Below, piece by piece: positions 5,007-44,881 of a stretch of 44,881 nt of DNA; within the stretch, counting starts at the first letter, position 1; each line of letters begins with the position of its first letter. Made by a program: the position numbers and the translations under genes. The DNA comes from Escherichia phage SM_A2: the sequence record PP920552.1; one strand, written 5' to 3'. The notes under the pieces were generated by a model. It did no database searches. It was not told where the DNA came from and saw nothing but the letters and a program-made list of their open reading frames with translations.

Positions 5007-5771
5007 TTAGCGCGGAATACCGCAGATTTCGTTTAACGTCTTCACGTCCAGCGCCACCGCCGTGGACTTCGGCTTGTCCTGGTATGGAATAAACTGTTCA
5101 ACTTCAGGCCACGCCTTGATCAGCTTCTTATCGGTATTGTGCATATCCAGCACGCCGGTAACAGTTAGTTTGAACGCATCATACTTAGCACGCAACTCGC
5201 GGCGGGCTTTGTCGTTACGGTCCAGGCGCTTACAGAAATCATGGTCTGCCGGGCAGTCTATACGACCGCGTGGCTTATATATCGGCAGCGCTTTCCCGTC
5301 GTCGTCGACTTCGCACACTGACGCTAACAAAATTTCCTCATACCCAGGCACAATATCGCCGAGGTCTGGAGACAGCTTATTCATGTATTTATACTCCCAG
5401 TATCCGCGATGTACTCGGAATCGGTACCCGTCTCCGCTCAATGACACGGTACGGACGTTTCCGCCTGCGTTGATTTCGAAAGTGGCGTCATAAACGCTGC
5501 CAATACCTTTTGGGCGGTCGGAGTCGAAACGATATGTAGCCTTATTGGTGTATACGCAAACGCCGTACATCTGCGACGGGTCATCGCCGATTGCTTCAAT
5601 GCGCGCACGTAGCTCGGCGAACGTATGAATGCCTACAGGCATACAGCGCAACGCAATGTCATACGCCAGGTCGCGAGAGTCCATCATGATTTTTTTGGCT
5701 TCAGTAGTGATTTCGTGGTCGCGCAGGATGTTAGCCAGAATCTGGTTTTTAATGTCTTTTGTCAGTCTCAT
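5007..5771 (-). CDS. hypothetical protein (accessory gene in head module)
   Basis: 254 aa ORF on the opposite strand to the surrounding structural genes; ATG at 5771 with GAGGA RBS; no motif recognised. Confidence 0.6.
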   Translation of the reverse strand: MRLTKDIKNQILANILRDHEITTEAKKIMMDSRDLAYDIALRCMPVGIHTFAELRARIEAIGDDPSQMYGVCVYTNKATYRFDSDRPKGIGSVYDATFEINAGGNVRTVSLSGDGYRFRVHRGYWEYKYMNKLSPDLGDIVPGYEEILLASVCEVDDDGKALPIYKPRGRIDCPADHDFCKRLDRNDKARRELRAKYDAFKLTVTGVLDMHNTDKKLIKAWPEVEQFIPYQDKPKSTAVALDVKTLNEICGIPR

Positions 5772-5815
5772 TTTCGTGTCCTCGTTGTTGGGGCTTTCGC
5801 CCCGTTTGGCTTGGT

Positions 5816-6130
5816 TTAGTTAAACTTGATGTTGCCACCGGTGGAAGTTAAGCGAGCGCATACGGCTTCAACGGCATCGACGCACATGAAATCGTTAAAG
5901 GCTTCTACCAGGGATTTGATGAAAGATGCCGGAACCAGACCGCAAGCCGGGTTATCGAAGGTTGCGGAATTGATTGCGGCCTTCGCTGCTTCAGTAGCAT
6001 TCATGCTCTGGCACAGATTCAGCGCTTCGGCGTTACGCATAGCATGAAAGGTGAAGGTTTTAGCTACGGTAGCTTTATTGAAACGGGTCATTGCTACGTC
6101 TACTGGAGTTGCTACGGTCATGTTAGTCAT
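5816..6130 (-). CDS. hypothetical protein (accessory gene in head module)
   Basis: 104 aa from the ATG at 6130, which has an AAGGA RBS 7 nt upstream (the ORF track extends to 6181); own promoter upstream; no motif recognised. Confidence 0.5.
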   Translation of the reverse strand: MTNMTVATPVDVAMTRFNKATVAKTFTFHAMRNAEALNLCQSMNATEAAKAAINSATFDNPACGLVPASFIKSLVEAFNDFMCVDAVEAVCARLTSTGGNIKFN

Positions 6131-6165
6131 CTTGTTTTCCTTCATATCTCTGTTGGTGTGCAACC

Positions 6166-6195
6166 AATATATTGCAACCAATACCCATATTGCAA
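6166..6195 (-). promoter_or_regulatory. sigma70-like promoter with ATTGGTTGCA motif (leftward)
   Basis: Read on the minus strand: TTGCAA (-35, fwd 6190-6195), 18-nt spacer containing ATTGGTTGCA, TATATT (-10, fwd 6166-6171); a second TGCAACCAAT copy at 6159-6168; upstream of gene 5816-6130. Confidence 0.5.
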
Positions 6196-16652: not shown

Positions 16653-17393
16653 ATGTTAACGAAAAAGGTTAAAAGCGATATCGCCGCACACGTTGCGGCG
16701 TGTCTGCCGGAAGAAGCCTGTGGCCTGGTTGTCATGGTGGGTCGTAAGCAAGTGTTCGTCCCATGTCTGAACGTATTCGAAGACCCGACCGGCGTGCGCT
16801 CCCGCAAAGACGCTTTTACGATTAGTGATATGGCCTGGATGGATGCCGAGGATATGGGCGACGTCGTGCGCGTAGTCCACTCACACCCGGGTCAGCGCGA
16901 GTTAACCCCCTCACTGGGCGACGTTAACGGATGCAACGGCAGCGGCGTAGTGTGGACCATCACTAACGAATATGGCGACTTTATTGAGATTGACCCGGAA
17001 GACCCGCCGCTGGTAGGCCGCCGATTTGTTCTCGGAATTACGGATTGTTACGGCCTCGTCATGGACTGGCACAAAAAGCAGGGAGTAAATTTGCCAGACT
17101 TCCGCGTGCCGTATAACTGGTGGGAGACAGGCGAAAATCTGTATATGGATAACTGGTACGGCGCGGGATTCAGGGAATGCGAGGAGAATACGCCGGGGGC
17201 GATGGTCATCATGCAGATTAGCGCGCCAGTGCCTAACCACGCCGGGATATTCCTTCCGGGCAACCAACTCCTACACCATATCTACGGCAGTCTGTCGAGC
17301 GTGATACCCTTCCGGTCAGGATTTTTCCGGGACAATGTGGTTAAATGGGTACGTCATAAAGACCTACCGGGGAATATAACAGAATGGCAATGA
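16653..17393 (+). CDS. tail assembly protein K-like (JAB/MPN + NlpC/P60 domains)
   Basis: JAMM motif HSHPGQRELTPSLGD (HxHx7Sx2D) and NlpC/P60-type Cys in DCYGLV. Confidence 0.85.
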   Translation: MLTKKVKSDIAAHVAACLPEEACGLVVMVGRKQVFVPCLNVFEDPTGVRSRKDAFTISDMAWMDAEDMGDVVRVVHSHPGQRELTPSLGDVNGCNGSGVVWTITNEYGDFIEIDPEDPPLVGRRFVLGITDCYGLVMDWHKKQGVNLPDFRVPYNWWETGENLYMDNWYGAGFRECEENTPGAMVIMQISAPVPNHAGIFLPGNQLLHHIYGSLSSVIPFRSGFFRDNVVKWVRHKDLPGNITEWQ

Positions 17394-22699: not shown

Positions 22700-22727
22700 G
22701 TATTACACCGCTCAACCACGAATGCAA
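22700..22727 (-). promoter_or_regulatory. sigma70-like promoter with ATTGGTTGCA motif (leftward, lipoprotein gene)
   Basis: Read on the minus strand: ATTGGTTGCAT supplies TTGCAT (-35), 16-nt spacer, TAATAC (-10, fwd 22700-22705), about 30 nt upstream of the lipoprotein ATG. Confidence 0.5.
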
Positions 22728-22747
22728 CCAATTTATGAGGATTTAGC

Positions 22748-25587: not shown

Positions 25588-25617
25588 ACTATAGTGCAAC
25601 CAACCTATTGGTTGCAA
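25588..25617 (-). promoter_or_regulatory. sigma70-like promoter with palindromic TGCAACCAA-N4-TTGGTTGCA motif (leftward)
   Basis: Minus-strand reading: TTGCAA (-35, fwd 25612-25617), 18-nt spacer, TATAGT (-10, fwd 25588-25593); overlaps the stop of gene 25605-26075; followed by hairpin GGGGGC-AATACA-GCCCCC (25561-25578). Confidence 0.5.
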
Positions 25618-27207: not shown

Positions 27208-27254
27208 CGTGTTGTCTCCAGGTATTAAAAAGGGCGTCCAAACCGGACACCCTC

Positions 27255-27288
27255 AATATAATGCAACCAATATGATTATGCAACCAAT
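27255..27288 (-). promoter_or_regulatory. sigma70-like promoter with tandem ATTGGTTGCA motifs (leftward)
   Basis: Minus-strand reading: ATTGGTTGCAT (-35 = TTGCAT, fwd 27278-27283), 17-nt spacer containing a second ATTGGTTGCA, TATATT (-10, fwd 27255-27260); a near-complementary hairpin plus T-run follows in the leader (fwd 27228-27250). Confidence 0.55.
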
Positions 27289-30211: not shown

Positions 30212-30250
30212 ACTATACCGCTATGCGACCAATTCAGCAACCAATAAATC
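30212..30250 (-). promoter_or_regulatory. sigma70-like promoter with tandem ATTGGT(T/C)GC motifs (leftward)
   Basis: Minus-strand reading: ATTGGTTGCTG (-35 = TTGCTG, fwd 30235-30240), 17-nt spacer containing ATTGGTCGCA, TATAGT (-10, fwd 30212-30217); lies inside the 3' end of the VRR-NUC gene. Confidence 0.45.
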
Positions 30251-33816: not shown

Positions 33817-33885
33817 ATGTATCGGGGTTATTGGAAGCCACCCCGTTCGGCTTGGTTGCTAATCTACTTGGTTGCGCCTACGCGG

Positions 33886-34128
33886 TCAAGCATTTTCATT
33901 AAAAAGATTTCTGGTCACGTAGTTGGTAGCGTTCTCGATCCAGCTTAGCGGCGGGCGTTCGATGTTCTTTTCCACCCAATCGACGGCAACTTCGCTATAT
34001 CCGTCATCCAGCCAGCGGGTCGGATGGCGAATCATCCACGCCACCATTAACACGCCTTGCACGCAATGCAGGATAAAGCCCAGCGCGCCGAGCAAAAACA
34101 TCAATAAGATTGCGAATACTTTATTCAT
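33886..34128 (-). CDS. small membrane protein (hypothetical)
   Basis: 80 aa; two hydrophobic helices (VFAILLMFLLGALGFIL, GVLMVAWMI). Confidence 0.45.
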   Translation of the reverse strand: MNKVFAILLMFLLGALGFILHCVQGVLMVAWMIRHPTRWLDDGYSEVAVDWVEKNIERPPLSWIENATNYVTRNLFNENA

Positions 34129-36029: not shown

Positions 36030-36641
36030 TTAATCTTCCAGTTCGAAATAAGTTTCGACGATTTCTTTAAGATCTTTGTGGAAGTCTTCGACGTCGTCAT
36101 CTTCCAGCTTGGCGATTGATTTGATCTCGAACGATTCCAGCAGGTCGTCGAATTCGTCGTTGGCATCGTCGTCGTCACCACCAGCGATAATAGCGGCGTA
36201 TTGTTTGATCTCATCGCGCATCTCCGCCAGCGGATCGGCATCTTTCTTGCCTTTGCCTTTCGCCGGGGCTTTTTTAGATTTAGCCGGTTTTTCGTCTTCG
36301 GCGTCATCGTCGTCATCTTCTTCTACGACTTCTTTTTTGGCCTTACCTTTCGCCGGGGCTTTTTTAGATTTAGCCGGTTTTTCGTCTTCGGCGTCATCGT
36401 CGTCATCTTCTTCTACGACTTCTTTTTTCGCCTTACCTTTCGCCGGGGCTTTTTTAGATTTAGCCGGTTTTTCGTCTTCGGCGTCATCGTCGTCATCTTC
36501 TTCTACGACTTCTTTTTTCGCCTTAGACGGCTTCTTGTCTTCCTGCTTACCAACGGCAGCGCCAACGGTTTCATAATGCTTAGCGATGGTTTCCAGTGCT
36601 ACTACGCCGCGAGTAATCAGGTTTACGATTTGTTCAAACAT
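36030..36641 (-). CDS. charged-repeat protein, first gene of leftward operon
   Basis: 203 aa; three tandem 38-aa repeats (KKEVVEEDDDDDAEDEKPAKSKKAPAKGKAKK) from 114-bp DNA repeats (about 36245-36530); strongly acidic C-terminus; GGAGAT RBS. Confidence 0.6.
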   Translation of the reverse strand: MFEQIVNLITRGVVALETIAKHYETVGAAVGKQEDKKPSKAKKEVVEEDDDDDAEDEKPAKSKKAPAKGKAKKEVVEEDDDDDAEDEKPAKSKKAPAKGKAKKEVVEEDDDDDAEDEKPAKSKKAPAKGKGKKDADPLAEMRDEIKQYAAIIAGGDDDDANDEFDDLLESFEIKSIAKLEDDDVEDFHKDLKEIVETYFELED

Positions 36642-36846
36642 GTTTTATATCTCCGATTGGTTAAGTTTAGGTGTCGGCAGTTAACTTCGTCGGTGGCCTT
36701 AACATATTGCCAGGTTGCGCGTTCTCCCGTTCGGGTAGTGGACCGGGTTATATATTCACGGTTGGGAATCCTGACACTTCGATCCGGCCCCTGCGTTGCC
36801 CCTCTCCAGTTTGCGTCCTGCATCCTGTCGACGGGGTGAATAATAG

Positions 36847-36879
36847 ATTGGTTGCAGGATGGGTGTCAACAACTAATTT
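36847..36879 (+). promoter_or_regulatory. sigma70-like promoter with ATTGGTTGCA motif (rightward)
   Basis: ATTGGTTGCAG (-35 = TTGCAG 36852-36857), 16-nt spacer, TAATTT (-10, 36874-36879). Confidence 0.4.
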
Positions 36880-36985: not shown

Positions 36986-37014
36986 TTGACACCTTGCGGT
37001 TTTAGGTGTAGTTT
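36986..37014 (+). promoter_or_regulatory. sigma70-like promoter (rightward)
   Basis: TTGACA (36986-36991), 17-nt spacer, TAGTTT (37009-37014); about 30 nt upstream of ATG 37046. Confidence 0.5.
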
Positions 37015-37045
37015 CATTGGTCATTAACCAACTGGGGACATAACA

Positions 37046-37375
37046 ATGAATGTAAACGACGCAATCGAAATGTTAACGAAGACTGTTAGCAGTGAAACAA
37101 GCCGGTCATGGGCTTATACCGATGCCGTTGGGGCGGTGCTGTTTGAGGTCGAGCGCCTGCGCAGTGTAGAAAAAGAATTACGCGCCAGGCTGGAATTGCT
37201 CAACGGTACTGCAGCAAGCAAGCTGCAAAAGCACAATGAAGAAATGGAAGAATACAAAAAACAGGTTATCCGTTTGCGCGCCGAGGGCAAATCCTGGGCG
37301 ATGATTGCCGAGTTGACCGGAATTAATCGGAGCACAGTGCGCTCCTGGGTACGCAATAATAAAACTTCTAAGTAA
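37046..37375 (+). CDS. HTH DNA-binding regulator (putative)
   Basis: 109 aa; coiled-coil N-terminal half; C-terminal HTH resembling sigma-70 region 4/LuxR type (GKSWAMIAELTGINRSTVRSWVRNN); first gene of the rightward operon. Confidence 0.55.
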   Translation: MNVNDAIEMLTKTVSSETSRSWAYTDAVGAVLFEVERLRSVEKELRARLELLNGTAASKLQKHNEEMEEYKKQVIRLRAEGKSWAMIAELTGINRSTVRSWVRNNKTSK

Positions 37376-39650: not shown

Positions 39651-39741
39651 ATTTTGCGCGCATTGGTTGCCATTTTGCGTGCTTTTAGGTGGTCGCATTG
39701 GTTGCCGCGTAGTGTAAATATGATGAATAGTTATGCAATAA

Positions 39742-39914
39742 AACTGCATAAAACAAACGGGACAAAAAGCGGGACAAACAGGGGGCGGGACAAAGCGGGA
39801 CAGCACCCCTGTCCCGCCCCGGATGACGCGGCCTGGCGAGGAGCGGGACAGCGGGACAGCACCCCAGTCTTTCAGACTAGACGGGGGGTCTGGCACCCCC
39901 CTCGTCTGAGACTG
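39742..39914. repeat. non-coding iteron/hairpin element, copy 2
   Basis: Paralogue of 12361-12520: about 6 GCGGGACA copies, A(C/T)TGCATAA copies and the conserved long hairpin (39865-39914); lies in the 480-bp gap after the primase-helicase gene. Confidence 0.8.
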
Positions 39915-40068
39915 CATAAAATCCGGGATTGCATAATACACGGCAACAAGATGCAAATTGCGGTCGTCGATGAACTAGGCAACCAATGCGAGCTGCAGAA
40001 TGGCGGGTGAAAAATGCAGTTTGCAGTTACAGCAGATAGCGATCAACTTTTTCATGCGCGTGATTAAT

Positions 40069-40102
40069 ATTGGTTGCATTCACCCTGGCACCCTGCTATT
40101 TT
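40069..40102 (+). promoter_or_regulatory. sigma70-like promoter with two ATTGGTTGCA-type motifs (rightward)
   Basis: ATTGGTTGCAT (-35 = TTGCAT 40074-40079), 17-nt spacer, TATTTT (40097-40102); a second motif TTTGGTTGCAC overlaps the -10/+1 region; about 20 nt upstream of the AAGAGGA RBS of gene 40131. Confidence 0.55.
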
Positions 40103-40130
40103 GGTTGCACACCAACAAGAGGACTGAACG

Positions 40131-40436
40131 ATGAGAGCTTTAATCTGGAATTACACAATAGCGGTGGCGAAGCTGTATGAAGCGAAGCACACAGACGGCA
40201 ACGCAGACGACGCGCGCCAGGTTGTCATCCTGGCCCAGCAGGGAATCATGAACGCGTTCGACGATATGTTTGCCAGCCTGGACGAACTGGAACCGCTGCG
40301 CGTGGCAATCTGCGAATATGCGATGGCTTTTGCCCGCGAGCGCCTGGCGTATCGCTTCGGGATCGGTGAGACGGCAGTGACAAACGTCGCCCGGATTAAA
40401 GCCCAGCGCGAACTATTCGCCCAGCTTGCGAAATAA
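40131..40436 (+). CDS. hypothetical protein
   Basis: 101 aa; AAGAGGA RBS; no motif recognised. Confidence 0.5.
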   Translation: MRALIWNYTIAVAKLYEAKHTDGNADDARQVVILAQQGIMNAFDDMFASLDELEPLRVAICEYAMAFARERLAYRFGIGETAVTNVARIKAQRELFAQLAK

Positions 40437-40445
40437 GGGGCCAAA

Positions 40446-40715
40446 ATGGACCGCAGACGCGCAAAACGCCTTTCATGGCGTATTCCACTGCATTGCATAC
40501 GAATATGGGCTAAGAATGCGAATGAGGGCGATTCTGTGTTCTGGTGCTACAGCGATGATGTGAAGCCATTAACGCAGACCCGCTACTTGCGCCAGTTCGC
40601 CAGGGAGCATGGGTTAGCCATAAAAACGTCCTTGCAACCAATTGGCATTCGTATTACATTACGCCGGAAGCCCGCCGTTGAGCGGGTAGGCAAACACTGG
40701 AGACTGAGCAAATGA
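40446..40715 (+). CDS. hypothetical protein
   Basis: 89 aa; AAGGGG RBS; basic; ends in the duplicated junction GGAGACTGAGCAAATGA. Confidence 0.5.
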   Translation: MDRRRAKRLSWRIPLHCIRIWAKNANEGDSVFWCYSDDVKPLTQTRYLRQFAREHGLAIKTSLQPIGIRITLRRKPAVERVGKHWRLSK

Positions 40716-42074: not shown

Positions 42075-42091
42075 TTATGCAAGCGTGATAT

Positions 42092-42126
42092 AGTCCCAGT
42101 GAGCTAAAACTTACTGGGACTTTTTT
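42092..42126 (+). terminator. intrinsic terminator directly abutting the holin start codon
   Basis: AGTCCCAGT-(12-nt loop)-ACTGGGACT hairpin followed by T6, ending 1 nt before ATG 42127. Confidence 0.6.
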
Positions 42127-42417
42127 ATGGATAAGCTAAACGAGTGGTTATTCGCCCTTGCGTGTCTTGCTGGTGGCTTCGTAGGCGCACGCATTCATGG
42201 CGAGGCAACGAAAGGGCCGTTGAACTTCGTTTTGTATGTGGTAGTTGGCTTCCTGTGTGCCATATTTGGCGCACCGGCTATTGCCGAGTGGGCTGGTTTG
42301 TCTGGTGAGCGCACTGTTGCCGGTTTGGGCTTCGTAACTGCCATCTTCTGGATGCCAATAGCTGACCGGATCCGGGAGACTATTGCGTCGTTCCGACTTC
42401 CGGGGGGTGCAAAATGA
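42127..42417 (+). CDS. holin (putative)
   Basis: 96 aa with three predicted TM helices; immediately upstream of a second membrane protein and the endolysin. Confidence 0.6.
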   Translation: MDKLNEWLFALACLAGGFVGARIHGEATKGPLNFVLYVVVGFLCAIFGAPAIAEWAGLSGERTVAGLGFVTAIFWMPIADRIRETIASFRLPGGAK

Positions 42418-43320: not shown

Positions 43321-43327
43321 ACTATCA

Positions 43328-43351
43328 AGCCCGGTTAATTCCGGGCTTTTT
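43328..43351 (+). terminator. intrinsic terminator after lysis cassette
   Basis: AGCCCGG-TTAATT-CCGGGCT hairpin followed by T4-5. Confidence 0.75.
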
Positions 43352-43412
43352 ATTGCTTGACTCGGGACCGTGGTATATTGTCCTCTGACCAATAACCAGG
43401 AAGTTAATTAAT

Positions 43413-44555
43413 ATGCACCCGCAAACTAAAATCACCGACGAGCAATTGATCGCCGAGTTGCAATCCGGCACTACCTCGAAAGATATTGCGAAGAAATACG
43501 GGATTGCCCTACGCAATGTCTATATGCGGAAAGCCCGCCTATCGAAGAAAGGGATTGGACACGGCAACGATGCCGTAATCCGCAAGCGCGTTGCCGATGG
43601 CTTTGGGGTTAAGCGCGTATCGGCCCTGGTGCGCGGCAATGGCGAAGAGGTCATGTCGTGGGTTATTACGGAGCAGGACAAGGAGCGCCAACTCGAAGCT
43701 ATGCGCGCTGTTGTCGCGGGTATGAACAGCGAAATCACACCGGCAGCGCCAGTAAACGCCCCTCCAGTACCGATCCAGGCGCTCGACTTGCTCAACCTGT
43801 ACACCGTGTCAGACTTCCACTTGGGCATGTTGGCATGGGGCGAGGAGACTGGCGAAGACTGGGATATGGCGATCGCCGAAGACCTGTTCTACCGCTGGTT
43901 TGTAGAAGCCTTCGCACGCGCACCAGACGCAGGCACTGCCGTAATTAATATCCTCGGGGATATGGCCCACTTTGATAGCCTCGATGCTGTCACTCCGGCA
44001 AGTGGTCACGTACTGGACGCCGACACCCGCTACCAGAAACTGGTCCGATACATGATTCGCATGGTGCGCAACGTCGTCGAACTGGCGCTGCAAAAACACC
44101 ACAAAGTCAAACTGCTAATCGTCCAGGGAAATCATGACGAGTCGGGTATGATTTGGCTGGCTGAGATGTTCAATACTCTGTACGAGAACGAGCCGCGCGT
44201 CGATGTAGATACGTCACCGGACGTATACAAGATGGTGCAGCACGGTAAGACCACGCTGTTTTTCCACCACGGGCACAAAGCGCGATTCGATGCTATCGAG
44301 CCGGTTATGATTTCTAAATTCAGACAGGCTTTCGGGTCCAGTGAGTATAGCTACGCGCACGTAGGCCACTTGCACCACCAGAAGATTGTAGAATCCCGCA
44401 ACATGATTGTTGAACAGCACCGGACGCTCGCAGCGAAAGACGCCTACGCCAGTCGTGGCGGTTGGATGTCAGGTCGTAGTGCCAACGTCATTACCTACAG
44501 CGCCAACTACGGCGAAGTTGCACGCTTAACCATTAGCCCGGAAATGTTGAAATGA
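43413..44555 (+). CDS. calcineurin-like metallophosphoesterase with N-terminal HTH-like domain
   Basis: 380 aa; phosphoesterase motifs VSDFHLG (D-x-H), ILGDMAHFD (GD-x-x-D), QGNHDE (GNH[DE]) plus later His pairs; N-terminal 40 aa HTH-like. Confidence 0.7.
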   Translation: MHPQTKITDEQLIAELQSGTTSKDIAKKYGIALRNVYMRKARLSKKGIGHGNDAVIRKRVADGFGVKRVSALVRGNGEEVMSWVITEQDKERQLEAMRAVVAGMNSEITPAAPVNAPPVPIQALDLLNLYTVSDFHLGMLAWGEETGEDWDMAIAEDLFYRWFVEAFARAPDAGTAVINILGDMAHFDSLDAVTPASGHVLDADTRYQKLVRYMIRMVRNVVELALQKHHKVKLLIVQGNHDESGMIWLAEMFNTLYENEPRVDVDTSPDVYKMVQHGKTTLFFHHGHKARFDAIEPVMISKFRQAFGSSEYSYAHVGHLHHQKIVESRNMIVEQHRTLAAKDAYASRGGWMSGRSANVITYSANYGEVARLTISPEMLK

Positions 44556-44764: not shown

Positions 44765-44881
44765 CCCTCCCAGCCTGCCGATTTGGTGGGCTTTTTTGTG
44801 CCTGTTATAATCCCAATTAGATGGCAGGGCCGTCTCCTATGTTGCCGATGGTCGGCGCATATGCACAAAAGGGCTTATATC

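Follow-up and report, generated by a model that had tools for sequence, protein, structure and literature searches.

What is a second copy of a short motif doing over the start site of a phage promoter whose -35 is already provided by a first copy? The question is posed by the rightward promoter P40070 of Escherichia phage SM_A2 (PP920552.1), a Dhillonvirus (HK578-like) whose complete genome of 44,881 nt is the window analysed here. A sequence-only reading had proposed that the second copy might be a repressor operator, and that the motif might generally be a protein-binding site rather than only a variant -35. Dhillonviruses (HK578 and several phages of the BASEL collection among them) are common in phage-defence and phage-engineering work; our literature searches found no description of transcription regulation in the genus, no transcript-mapping data for it, and nothing relevant on the motif or on Dhillonvirus promoters.

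The promoter and its two motif copies

The elements of P40070 are as follows.

40069..40078, + strand: motif copy 1 (ATTGGTTGCA), of which TTGCA plus the next T makes the -35; invariant in 16 of 16 aligned promoter sequences
40097..40102, + strand: -10 hexamer TATTTT, 17 nt past the -35, read from the sequence
40101..40109, + strand: motif copy 2 (TTGGTTGCA), likewise invariant in 16 of 16 aligned sequences
40110..40130, + strand: 5' leader, containing the CA-rich element CACCAACAAGAGGA and, at 40119-40123, the Shine-Dalgarno sequence GAGGA; the ATG follows at 40131

Both copies are real, the exact 9-mer TTGGTTGCA being found at 40070-40078 (within ATTGGTTGCAT, 40069-40079) and again at 40101-40109 (within TTTGGTTGCAC, 40100-40110). 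As had been read from the letters, the first supplies the -35 (TTGCAT, 40074-40079), and the second covers the final two positions of the -10 together with the predicted start (about 40109-40111), so that it spans approximately -6 to +3, a placement between -10 and +1 that fits repression. With a spacer of 17 nt (40080-40096) between TTGCAT and TATTTT, and an ATG 29 nt downstream of the -10, the arrangement is that of a sigma-70 promoter, though a weak one: TTGCAT has only 3/6 of TTGACA, which is why P40070 is absent from the output of a strict sigma-70 scan. The alignment comprises SM_A2 and 15 other sequences, one of them a duplicate of HK578, and in all 16 the bases critical for sigma-70 are conserved (TTGCA...TA.aTT), only positions 3 and 4 of the -10 varying (the relatives have TATATT or TAGATT, always keeping the T, the A and the two final T's). 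The T at 40100, which gives TTTGG and not ATTGG, is unique to SM_A2; in the 15 others TATATT or TAGATT is followed by GGTTGCA.

The motif is not alone in its conservation here, as the entire region 40030-40125 is highly conserved. At the orthologous promoter of more distant lineages the second copy shifts: in Dhillonvirus it spans roughly -6 to +3, whilst it lies in the spacer in the loci L006, L008 and L010, and is absent from L116, while CACCAAAC...GAGGA is kept in L010 and L116, both of which are without a start-proximal copy. The TATATTGGTTGCACACCAACA core around copy 2 also occurs on the minus strand at 6159-6171.

Two other readings of these letters were rejected. Copy 2 does not serve as the -35 of a further downstream promoter, there being no -10 at 16-18 nt past TTGCAC, and a sigma-54 promoter (TGGCAC-N5-TTGCA) involving the CTGGCAC of the spacer has the wrong spacing.

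A 10-bp element at early and middle promoters

The core of the motif, TTGGTTGC, occurs 18 times in the genome, against 1.98 +/- 1.35 expected from shuffles of the sequence, and none of 100 shuffles attained 18; TTGGTTGCA with at most one mismatch occurs 23 times (11.9 expected). Non-coding DNA, which amounts to 6.8% of the genome, holds 13 of the 18 core copies (binomial P = 4e-12), and three more are about 25 nt or less from a gene end. Information content is close to zero outside aTTGGTTGCa, so the copies are not pieces of a longer cassette, and the repeated unit is about 10 bp; its ninth base (A 12, C 5, G 2, T 3) and the T's that follow are variable. The approximately 18 conserved copies are associated with nearly all the early and middle promoters and with the flanks of the likely replication origin. 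The other promoters that carry them, and one copy inside a gene, are:

36840..36869, - strand: PL, leftward early promoter; TTGACA (36869-36864), 18 nt, TATTAT (36845-36840); scan call, 11/12 consensus
36986..37031, + strand: PR, rightward early promoter; TTGACA (36986-36991), 17 nt, TAGTTT (37009-37014); conserved in 13 sequences
33852..33889, - strand: Pssb; TTGACC (33889-33884), 17 nt, TAGATT (33866-33861); independent scan call, conserved in 10 sequences
27255..27287, - strand: P27287; -35 TTGCAT supplied by the copy at 27279-27287, -10 TATATT (27260-27255); from motif and relatives
30212..30244, - strand: P30244; TTGGTTGCT at 30236-30244 gives the -35 TTGCTG, -10 TATAGT (30217-30212); from motif and relatives
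25588..25617, - strand: P25603; TTGCAA (25617-25612), 18 nt, TATAGT (25593-25588); scan call
22700..22731, - strand: P22731; -35 TTGCAT supplied by the copy at 22723-22731, 16 nt, TAATAC (22705-22700); from motif and relatives
6159..6195, - strand: P6181; -35 TTGCAA (6195-6190), -10 TATATT (6171-6166); conserved in 17 sequences
40633..40641, - strand: intragenic copy in gene 40446-40715; ATTGGTTGCAA invariant in 17 sequences, flanking codons variable

The orientation of the extra copies tracks the class of promoter: they are inverted at consensus promoters and forward where the motif itself is the -35. Thus the PL spacer holds an inverted copy at 36848-36856 (in relatives, TTGAC.Cc.....tGCAACCAATCTA.tATTCAC), and in L006, L008 and L010 it is filled by two abutting copies. 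The PR leader has a degenerate inverted copy (ATTAACCAA, 37023-37031), with exact TTGGTTGCA at the equivalent position in L006 and L010 and TTGGTTGCG in L008. Pssb has inverted copies both in its spacer (33868-33876) and directly past its -10 (33852-33860). Among the motif-type promoters, P27287 has a second copy in the spacer (27262-27270) that ends 1 nt short of the -10, and the spacer of P30244 carries TTGGTCGCA (30224-30232); P22731 precedes a small gene on the minus strand, annotated in relatives as encoding a lipoprotein or superinfection-exclusion protein. P6181, upstream of a small gene and a gene assigned to Nmad5 by domain match, has one copy in its spacer (6173-6181) and one over its start (6159-6167), as at 40101. 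Start-proximal copies comparable to that at 40101 are therefore present at Pssb, P6181 and PR, although those of P6181 and P40070 are not independent, since both lie inside one 24-nt block common to the two promoters. A further upstream stretch, GCAAAATTCNCTTGCAA, is common to P6181 and P25603. Two conserved candidate late promoters of the extended -10 type, TGTTATAAT (44803-44811) and TGGTATATT (43371-43379), are without the motif.

At P25603 the -35 lies inside an inverted copy (25608-25616) and a forward copy (25595-25603) stops 1 nt before the -10, which creates the palindrome TGCAACCAA-CCTA-TTGGTTGCA (25595-25616). The sequence-only reading had called this arrangement consistent with a dimeric binder, an argument that does not survive comparison: this is the only locus with an inverted pair, and a symmetric dimer is unsupported because, of the 52 close site pairs in nine genomes or loci that carry the motif, 47 are direct repeats (spacing 9 to 37 bp).

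The proposal of a protein-binding site fares much better. Motif columns are invariant beside variable spacer or leader columns at P6181, PL, Pssb, P40070 and the right flank of the origin-like region (the comparison covering 4 to 20 distinct sequences per region). The element is over-represented and specific and overlaps core promoter elements, as an operator should, and the constraint on it exceeds the needs of RNA polymerase, given that spacer and promoter-less copies are invariant while adjacent columns vary. Recognition by RNA polymerase alone cannot explain the inverted copies in spacers or the copies without promoters, and so, with the enrichment and the sharp limit at about 10 bp, a role as a putative protein-binding site is well supported.

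Copies beside a putative origin of replication

Three copies have no promoter.

39659-39671 and 39694-39706, + strand: two direct CGCATTGGTTGCC copies on the left flank, directly past the helicase-primase stop; conserved in 20 sequences
39978..39991, - strand: inverted TCGCATTGGTTGCC copy on the right flank of the origin-like region; repeats I1 and I2

No promoter is present at 39659..39706, and TTGGTTGCC copies are found at the equivalent left-flank place in L006, L008, L010 and L116; at the right flank, cGCATTGGTTGCC is invariant between variable flanks (17 sequences). The three copies bracket a region with at least seven GCGGGACA iteron repeats and a conserved long hairpin, close to the genes for a helix-turn-helix (HTH) protein and the helicase-primase, and this is the putative origin.

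It might be supposed from this that the HTH protein is an origin-recognition or helicase-loading factor, for which the origin TTGGTTGCC copies are primary and those at promoters secondary, coupling transcription to replication in the manner of DnaA boxes. The gene order (HTH gene, helicase-primase gene, sites, iterons) is in keeping with such a role, as are the position of the TTGGTTGCC copies directly past the helicase-primase stop in every lineage examined and the repeats and hairpin themselves. Against it, the origin-like region has only three of the 18 copies, most of the others overlapping core promoters; the iterons differ in sequence from the motif, so that the initiator may be another protein; and the region is itself only a putative origin. 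We regard this as very unlikely to be the main role of the motif, although it overlaps with the explanation preferred below.

A candidate binding protein

If a phage protein binds the motif, one gene product is the best candidate.

37046..37375, + strand: candidate binder, 109 aa; first gene of the rightward early operon, directly before the helicase-primase gene

The protein is predicted to have a long helix spanning residues 21-79, and an HTH at its C-terminus (AlphaFold2 model, pLDDT 85), with Pfam matches to HTH_23 (3.7e-8) and Sigma70_r4_2 (28.3 bits); a match to HTH_3 (17.9 bits) is under the cut-off of 23, which places the protein outside the Cro/CI family. Its DNA-binding half (residues 47-106) is almost invariant, and its N-terminus is hypervariable. 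It was the only one of 30 scanned non-structural proteins (a subset of the ORFs) with a significant HTH. Wider homologues are very few (three full-length representatives among 1.84 billion proteins, other matches being to generic HTH domains), and fold and sequence searches of the PDB likewise returned only generic HTH matches.

The distribution of the protein follows that of the motif. Homologues are present in all four of the distant motif-bearing loci (L006, L008, L010 and L116; 46-82% identity over the aligned part), and the syntenic locus of the Kagunavirus St162 has neither a homologue nor any TTGGTTGC in 14 kb, an annotated Cro/CI-type gene occupying the slot, in a sample limited to a handful of lineages with a single outgroup. 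No other non-structural protein in the comparison combines a DNA-binding domain with a distribution matching the motif. Covariation between recognition helix and motif is uninformative, because L116, the most divergent member (STIKNWIYR, versus STVRSWVRN), retains the same motif. The modelled architecture suggests a coiled-coil dimer, yet most of the sites are arranged as direct repeats at irregular distances.

Three other proteins were considered and rejected as binders. Protein 40131-40436, which would have been autoregulating, has a conserved C-terminal HTH-like stretch, but no homologue in L006, L008, L010 or L116, all of which keep the motif. Protein 43413-44555, with a weak N-terminal GerE match, is absent from the distant motif-bearing loci, and protein 36030-36641 is a low-complexity protein with acidic and lysine-rich repeats that is also found in the motif-free St162.

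Repression, activation or neither?

Because conserved copies mark nearly every early and middle promoter as well as the flanks of the putative origin, the motif is most likely an operator of a small phage HTH protein. From the sites, their enrichment, conservation and positions, and the co-occurrence of protein and motif, we infer binding, the identity of the binder and a repressive effect; in its full form, with ATTGGTTGCA as an asymmetric site of about 10 bp, the product of 37046-37375 as its most probable ligand, and negative control as its function, we give this explanation roughly an even chance. The protein would recognise ATTGGTTGCA at P40070 either at copy 1 (over the -35) or at copy 2 (from the -10 to the start), and in either case would exclude RNA polymerase, which would make both copies negative-control operators; promoter occlusion of the Cro type is the most likely mechanism. 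At PL, PR and Pssb, with their inverted site within the core promoter, this protein would also turn transcription off, and it would mark both sides of the likely origin; the two candidate late promoters, having no site, would escape. The outcome would be a Cro-like turning down, or autoregulation, of early and middle transcription. We note separately that P40070 may serve the lysis genes through read-through of a terminator at 42092, a possible need that fits awkwardly with simple shut-off.

Activation is the likeliest of the alternatives. A protein on the forward motif (about -38 to -30) might recruit or re-target the host RNA polymerase, as at a T4 MotA box or PhoB boxes, making these promoters protein-dependent middle promoters; copy 2 at 40101 would then accommodate a second protomer or serve for fine-tuning, and repression would still be exerted from the inverted copies at the consensus early promoters. 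The distance from the end of the forward motif to the -10 is indeed a constant 17-18 nt, as for a MotA-type box, at eight promoters across lineages (P40070, P27287, P30244, P22731 and the orthologous promoters of L006, L008, L010 and L116), the -35 that the motif supplies is a poor one, orientation tracks promoter class, and the HTH scores above the Pfam threshold for sigma-70 region 4. Nevertheless, sigma-70 should be able to use TTG with a 17-nt spacer and TATATT or TATAGT unaided, a second copy over the start or in the spacer (about -22 to -14) lies where a bound protein would usually obstruct polymerase, no MotA or AsiA family member was found by Pfam among the 30 scanned proteins, and the fold search offered nothing more specific than an HTH. 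On balance we consider activation unlikely. Distinctly unlikely, in our view, is a more ambitious version, in which the 37046-37375 protein would run the whole early programme through one asymmetric 9-mer whose orientation sets the outcome: shut-off where it is inverted in consensus promoters, switching on of middle promoters where it is forward at the -35, and help in loading the helicase-primase at the origin flanks. Here the sigma-region-4-like HTH would replace -35 recognition, a MotA-like appropriation in a small siphovirus, and the hypervariable N-terminus would be the surface contacting polymerase, helicase or host defences.

There may, on the other hand, be no dedicated binder at all, copy 2 being kept for its overlap with -10, start and leader, and the repeats being copies of one successful promoter core. 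The conservation of 40030-40125 throughout, the inclusion of copy 2 in the 24-nt block of P6181 and P40070, and the occurrence of GCAAAATTCNCTTGCAA upstream of both P6181 and P25603 could all be understood in this way. What it leaves unexplained are the inverted copies in consensus-promoter spacers, the promoter-less copies flanking the origin, the conserved intragenic copy, and the sharp loss of similarity beyond 10 bp. Nor does a leader RNA hairpin (TTGGT-N5-ACCAA) come to its aid: the structure is weak (-2.9 kcal/mol, z = 0.36), no better than in shuffles and mostly upstream of the start, so we rejected it, and there were no matches to Rfam RNA families within the window. The absence of any dedicated binder is therefore highly improbable.

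Extremely improbable is a host factor such as CytR of E. coli, whose operators resemble the phage sites in their GTTGCA core, their variable spacing and their occasional direct repeats: CytR half-sites contain TTGCA or GTTGCATT, and variable spacing and direct repeats are tolerated (PMC3454398). Exact GTTGCATT is present at 40072-40079, 27263-27270 and 22724-22731. However, the conserved positions differ, the invariant part of the phage motif being TTGGTTGC and the ninth base and following T's, which are important for CytR, being variable; natural CytR cassettes require a CRP site (PMC3454398), and no CRP-like site (up to two mismatches) was found near any motif-bearing promoter. The motif is also absent from the Kagunavirus of Salmonella, a closely related enterobacterial host. 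A host CytR-CRP cassette was accordingly rejected, and we return to the phage HTH protein as the preferred ligand.

Implications

If this inference holds, it provides a control map for Dhillonvirus, in which one 10-bp operator at about 18 places answers to one candidate regulator gene, and in which there are three types of promoter: consensus promoters with inverted sites, promoters with the motif as -35, and extended -10 promoters without sites. Those who engineer these phages would learn which promoters are likely to be self-limiting, and which single gene should, on removal, deregulate early expression. The principle is ordinary, phage repressors with dispersed operators being well known already, and the operator reading is useful though not surprising.

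Comparison with known systems

DnaA boxes, and the iterons and operators of plasmid Rep proteins, provide one parallel: a single asymmetric 9-mer serves both at an origin and within promoters, whichever way it points and at no fixed spacing. The SM_A2 motif is likewise a single asymmetric 9-mer at an origin-like region and at promoters, but its sequence is unrelated to TTATCCACA, separate iterons (GCGGGACA) are present, and the candidate binder is a 109-aa HTH protein without an ATPase domain.

The likeness to the middle promoters of T4 lies in a phage-specific element of 9-10 bp which, at a set distance upstream of a sigma-70 -10, stands in for a good -35, and in the coexistence of this class with early promoters of consensus type and late promoters of another kind. 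MotA boxes, however, are not known to occur in the spacer, over the start or inverted in early promoters, which is where the extra SM_A2 copies are found.

Similar in layout are the operators of P1 C1 and the sites of gp71 of mycobacteriophage L5, both of them immunity repressors of temperate phages: here too there are many short asymmetric copies in short intergenic regions, some over a -35 and some paired. L5 sites have one orientation relative to transcription, whereas in SM_A2 the orientation varies with promoter class and at the origin flanks.

In genetic organization, a comparison can be made with lambda Cro, a small HTH protein encoded by the first rightward early gene, with replication genes and the origin next, whose sites in OR and OL overlap divergent early promoters and so turn down early transcription, including its own. 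There is no sequence relationship (the SM_A2 protein matching HTH_23, HTH_28 and Sigma70_r4_2 and not the Cro/CI family), the SM_A2 sites are asymmetric 9-10-mers, mostly in direct repeat, and not 17-bp dyads, they number about 18 and are dispersed over the genome instead of forming two operator clusters, and SM_A2 is without recognizable lysogeny genes. In SM_A2 as in lambda, though, a small HTH protein (37046-37375) is the first product of the rightward early operon, replication genes and a putative origin come next, and the sites overlap divergent early promoters.

A short repeated element in a Dhillonvirus genome

The window is a complete Dhillonvirus genome of 44,881 bp, that of an HK578-like virulent siphophage of E. 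coli, and shares 88-95% identity with StarDew, UHP65, phiEco273, Oekolampad and some 150 further records. Its genes are laid out as follows.

1 to about 24,341, rightward: structural genes
about 36,640 to 24,368, leftward: replication and modification block
from 37,046, rightward: block that opens with a small helix-turn-helix (HTH) gene and the helicase-primase gene; after these come a 480-bp non-coding region, small genes, lysis genes and the phosphoesterase gene

The core motif TTGGTTGC occurs 18 times (1.98 +/- 1.35 in shuffles); 13 copies are within non-coding DNA, scored as 6.8% of the genome (P = 4e-12), and three more are no further than about 25 nt from the end of a gene. When all the sites are aligned, information content is at background outside aTTGGTTGCa, so the unit is about 10 bp rather than a long duplicated cassette. 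Site positions are conserved in StarDew, HK578, rolling and EE09, and the same 8-mer or near variants top the k-mer lists of L006, L008, L010 and L116, metagenomic relatives at a greater distance. Column conservation, compared over 4-20 distinct sequences per region, showed invariant motif columns beside variable spacer or leader columns: the consensus among relatives is TTGAC.Cc.....tGCAACCAATCTA.tATTCAC at promoter PL and GCTTGCa.T.c...t.TTGGTtGCa.TAtATTGGTTGCACACCAAC (variable beyond) at promoter P6181, and the right origin flank has cGCATTGGTTGCC amid variable flanks. As RNA polymerase needs no specific bases in spacers or at promoter-less positions, a separate protein would read the element. 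These invariant copies are the main argument bearing out the sequence-only reading that the motif is a protein-binding site and not just a -35 variant, which we regard as probable. We found no publication on the motif or on transcription control in Dhillonvirus.

Promoters with and without the motif

Motif-bearing promoters fall into two types, with orientation strictly tied to type.

Motif-bearing promoters of the window
Type I: near-consensus -35, TTGAC(A/C); motif inverted, inside the core promoter; PL, Pssb, PR
PL, 36869-36840: TTGACA/18/TATTAT; site in spacer
Pssb, 33889-33861: TTGACC/17/TAGATT; one spacer site, one just past the -10
PR, 36986-37014: TTGACA/17/TAGTTT; degenerate leader site
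Type II: -35 (TTGCAT or TTGCTG) from the forward motif, usually with a second forward copy; -10 (TATATT, TATAGT, TAATAC or TATTTT) 16-17 nt after the -35; P40070, P27287, P30244, P22731
Type II variant: -35 TTGCAA; forward motif ends 1 nt before the -10; P6181, P25603

In L006 and L010 the PR leader site matches TTGGTTGCA exactly; in L008 it reads TTGGTTGCG. In type II the second forward copy is in the spacer at P27287 and P30244 and over the start at P40070; P6181 has an extra start-proximal copy, within a 24-nt block common to P40070. P6181 drives an Nmad5 (nucleotide-modification-associated) gene and a small gene (5007-6124, minus strand), opposite in direction to the surrounding head-gene block, in a slot whose gene content varies among relatives.

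At P27287, a strong terminator-like hairpin (27227-27260, minus strand; -17.6 kcal/mol, z = -4.3) followed by UUUUU, omitted by a consensus terminator scan, begins 2 nt past the -10. Since transcripts from P27287 would start inside its 5' arm, the hairpin could halt upstream read-through while new transcripts escape.

Two extended -10 candidates have neither a -35 nor the motif.

44803-44811: TGTTATAAT, between the terminator at 44772-44792 and the small terminase gene
43371-43379: TGGTATATT, before the phosphoesterase gene

Both are invariant among relatives in Dhillonvirus and may represent a late promoter class of their own. HK578 (about 42090-42135 of that genome) and rolling have an extra consensus-type promoter (TTGACT) after a terminator, with two inverted motif copies; this segment is deleted in the window (43327-43380), which joins TTGACTC directly to the extended -10 promoter.

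The two copies at P40070

The elements of this promoter, read from the sequence, make it a moderate sigma-70 promoter.

40069-40079: ATTGGTTGCAT, containing the exact 9-mer at 40070-40078 (copy 1)
40074-40079: -35, TTGCAT, followed by a 17-nt spacer
40097-40102: -10, TATTTT
40100-40110: TTTGGTTGCAC, containing the exact 9-mer at 40101-40109 (copy 2)
40119-40123: GAGGA, followed by ATG at 40131

The sequence thus confirms both copies that had been reported, and copy 2 does overlie the -10/start region, spanning about -6 to +3. A strict consensus scan omits P40070 because TTGCAT matches TTGACA at only three of six positions. Among 16 aligned promoter sequences from relatives no change is seen in the -35 TTG or in the T, A and last two T's of the -10, and the middle of the spacer is variable. 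The T at 40100 occurs in this phage alone; the remaining 15 sequences read ATTGGTTGCA and have a -10 of TATATT or TAGATT. The orthologous promoter (the first after the origin-like region) has a second copy in most lineages, at a shifting location: Dhillonvirus has it at -6 to +3, L006, L008 and L010 have it in the spacer, and L116 lacks it. A CACCAA(A)C...GAGGA leader is kept in L010 and L116 without an adjoining motif, so the apparent TTGGT...ACCAA palindrome (40101-40115) is probably two juxtaposed elements. As an RNA hairpin it was rejected, for it is weak (-2.9 kcal/mol, z = 0.36) and most of it would precede the start.

The 40 bp upstream of copy 1 (40030-40068, CAGCAGATAGCGATCAACTTTTTCATGCGCGTGATTAATA) are near-invariant among relatives, beyond the need of a plain upstream region, and the numbering of three GenBank records begins at the equivalent of 40030. 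Further downstream, a strong terminator (42092-42127; 12-bp stem, then TTTTTT) stops 5 nt short of the holin start codon, with no space left for a promoter. The lysis genes appear to rely on transcription that reads through from P40070.

Copies outside promoters

An iteron-rich region (39740-39915) is flanked by three promoter-less CGCATTGGTTGCC copies, of which two are direct and one is inverted. The surroundings (39730-39940, just downstream of the helicase-primase gene) are a likely replication origin, with at least seven GCGGGACA repeats (39757-39860), inverted copies too, repeated (A/T)TGCATAA units and a long conserved hairpin (39865-39914; -28.4 kcal/mol, z = -3.6). At the same place in the Kagunavirus St162, GAATAGTTATGCA and a G-rich iteron block recur. 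One more copy (40633-40641, minus strand) is intragenic, yet conserved. A TTGGTTGCC copy (17259-17267, minus strand) is found deep in a minor tail gene; all four of the complete relatives compared retain it, which coding constraint alone could explain.

A candidate binder

In a Pfam scan of 30 non-structural proteins, a significant helix-turn-helix came up in one alone, the 109-aa product of 37046-37375 (HTH_23, 3.7e-8; HTH_28; Sigma70_r4_2, 28.3 bits, cut-off 25.7). Its AlphaFold2 model (pLDDT 85) runs from a short helix through a 59-residue helix to the HTH; PDB fold and sequence searches gave generic HTH matches only. The family has very few members (24 clusters in a 5.8-billion-sequence set; among 1.84 billion, three full-length representatives). 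Residues 47-106, which contain the recognition helix STVRSWVRN, are near-invariant; residues 1-45 (37046-37180) are hypervariable, almost wholly different even among close relatives, and could be an interaction surface that has been exchanged or evolves quickly. The gene's labels in public records range from transposase to Gam-like nuclease inhibitor and hypothetical protein.

We compared 36 window proteins with four distant motif-bearing loci and the syntenic locus of St162, which lacks TTGGTTGC across 14 kb and has a Cro/CI-type gene in the corresponding slot. Only three proteins were in all motif-bearing loci and absent from St162: the HTH protein, a holin and a neighbouring 99-aa protein. 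The one divergent HTH family member is that of L116, where the motif is unchanged. The link between HTH protein and motif, a correlation, is consistent and specific, and we consider this protein a reasonably probable binder.

The proteins encoded at 40131, 43413 and 36030 all fail as binders. The last (36030-36641, minus strand), product of the first gene of the leftward early operon, is very acidic and lysine-rich, with tandem repeats of about 30 residues (KKEVVEEDDDDDAEDEKPAKSKKAPAKGKA) whose number differs among phages (three here, one in HK578); one possibility is a DNA mimic.

Repression or activation, and known systems

The inverted pair at 25595-25616, from which a dimeric binder had been argued, is as described. 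The argument itself is not supported, because 47 of 52 close site pairs in nine motif-bearing genomes or loci are direct repeats (spacings of 9, 12-17, 22-23, 31 and 35-37 bp) and the inverted arrangement is confined to the P25603 locus; individual 9-mers are probably the unit that the binder reads.

Site positions favour repression: they are inside spacers, across the start or overlapping the -35, and the inverted sites are in the genome's best sigma-70 promoters, including the regulator's own divergent PL/PR region. The order of regulator, replication gene and origin parallels the lambdoid cro-replication arrangement, and St162 has its Cro/CI-type gene in the regulator's slot. The main rival is that forward -35 copies are activator sites, for which speak the fixed distance of the forward motif from the -10, the poor consensus match of the -35 and the strict tie between orientation and promoter type. 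On the strength of site positions and gene order we prefer a Cro-like turn-down, in which the HTH protein would repress early and middle promoters and copy 2 would serve as operator. A negative effect at P40070 seems the better guess; the whole statement, with this protein as repressor and copy 2 as operator, we hold to be evenly poised.

A CytR-CRP arrangement was discarded, there being no CRP sites and different conserved bases. MotA/AsiA is set apart by the lack of homologues among the proteins scanned, and Cro/CI, strictly defined, by its dyad operators and protein family. Lambda Cro is the closest analogy for position, P1 C1 and L5 gp71 for the asymmetry and scatter of the sites, and DnaA for use at both origin and promoters. 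By analogy, the motif system may work like the dispersed operators of a phage repressor.
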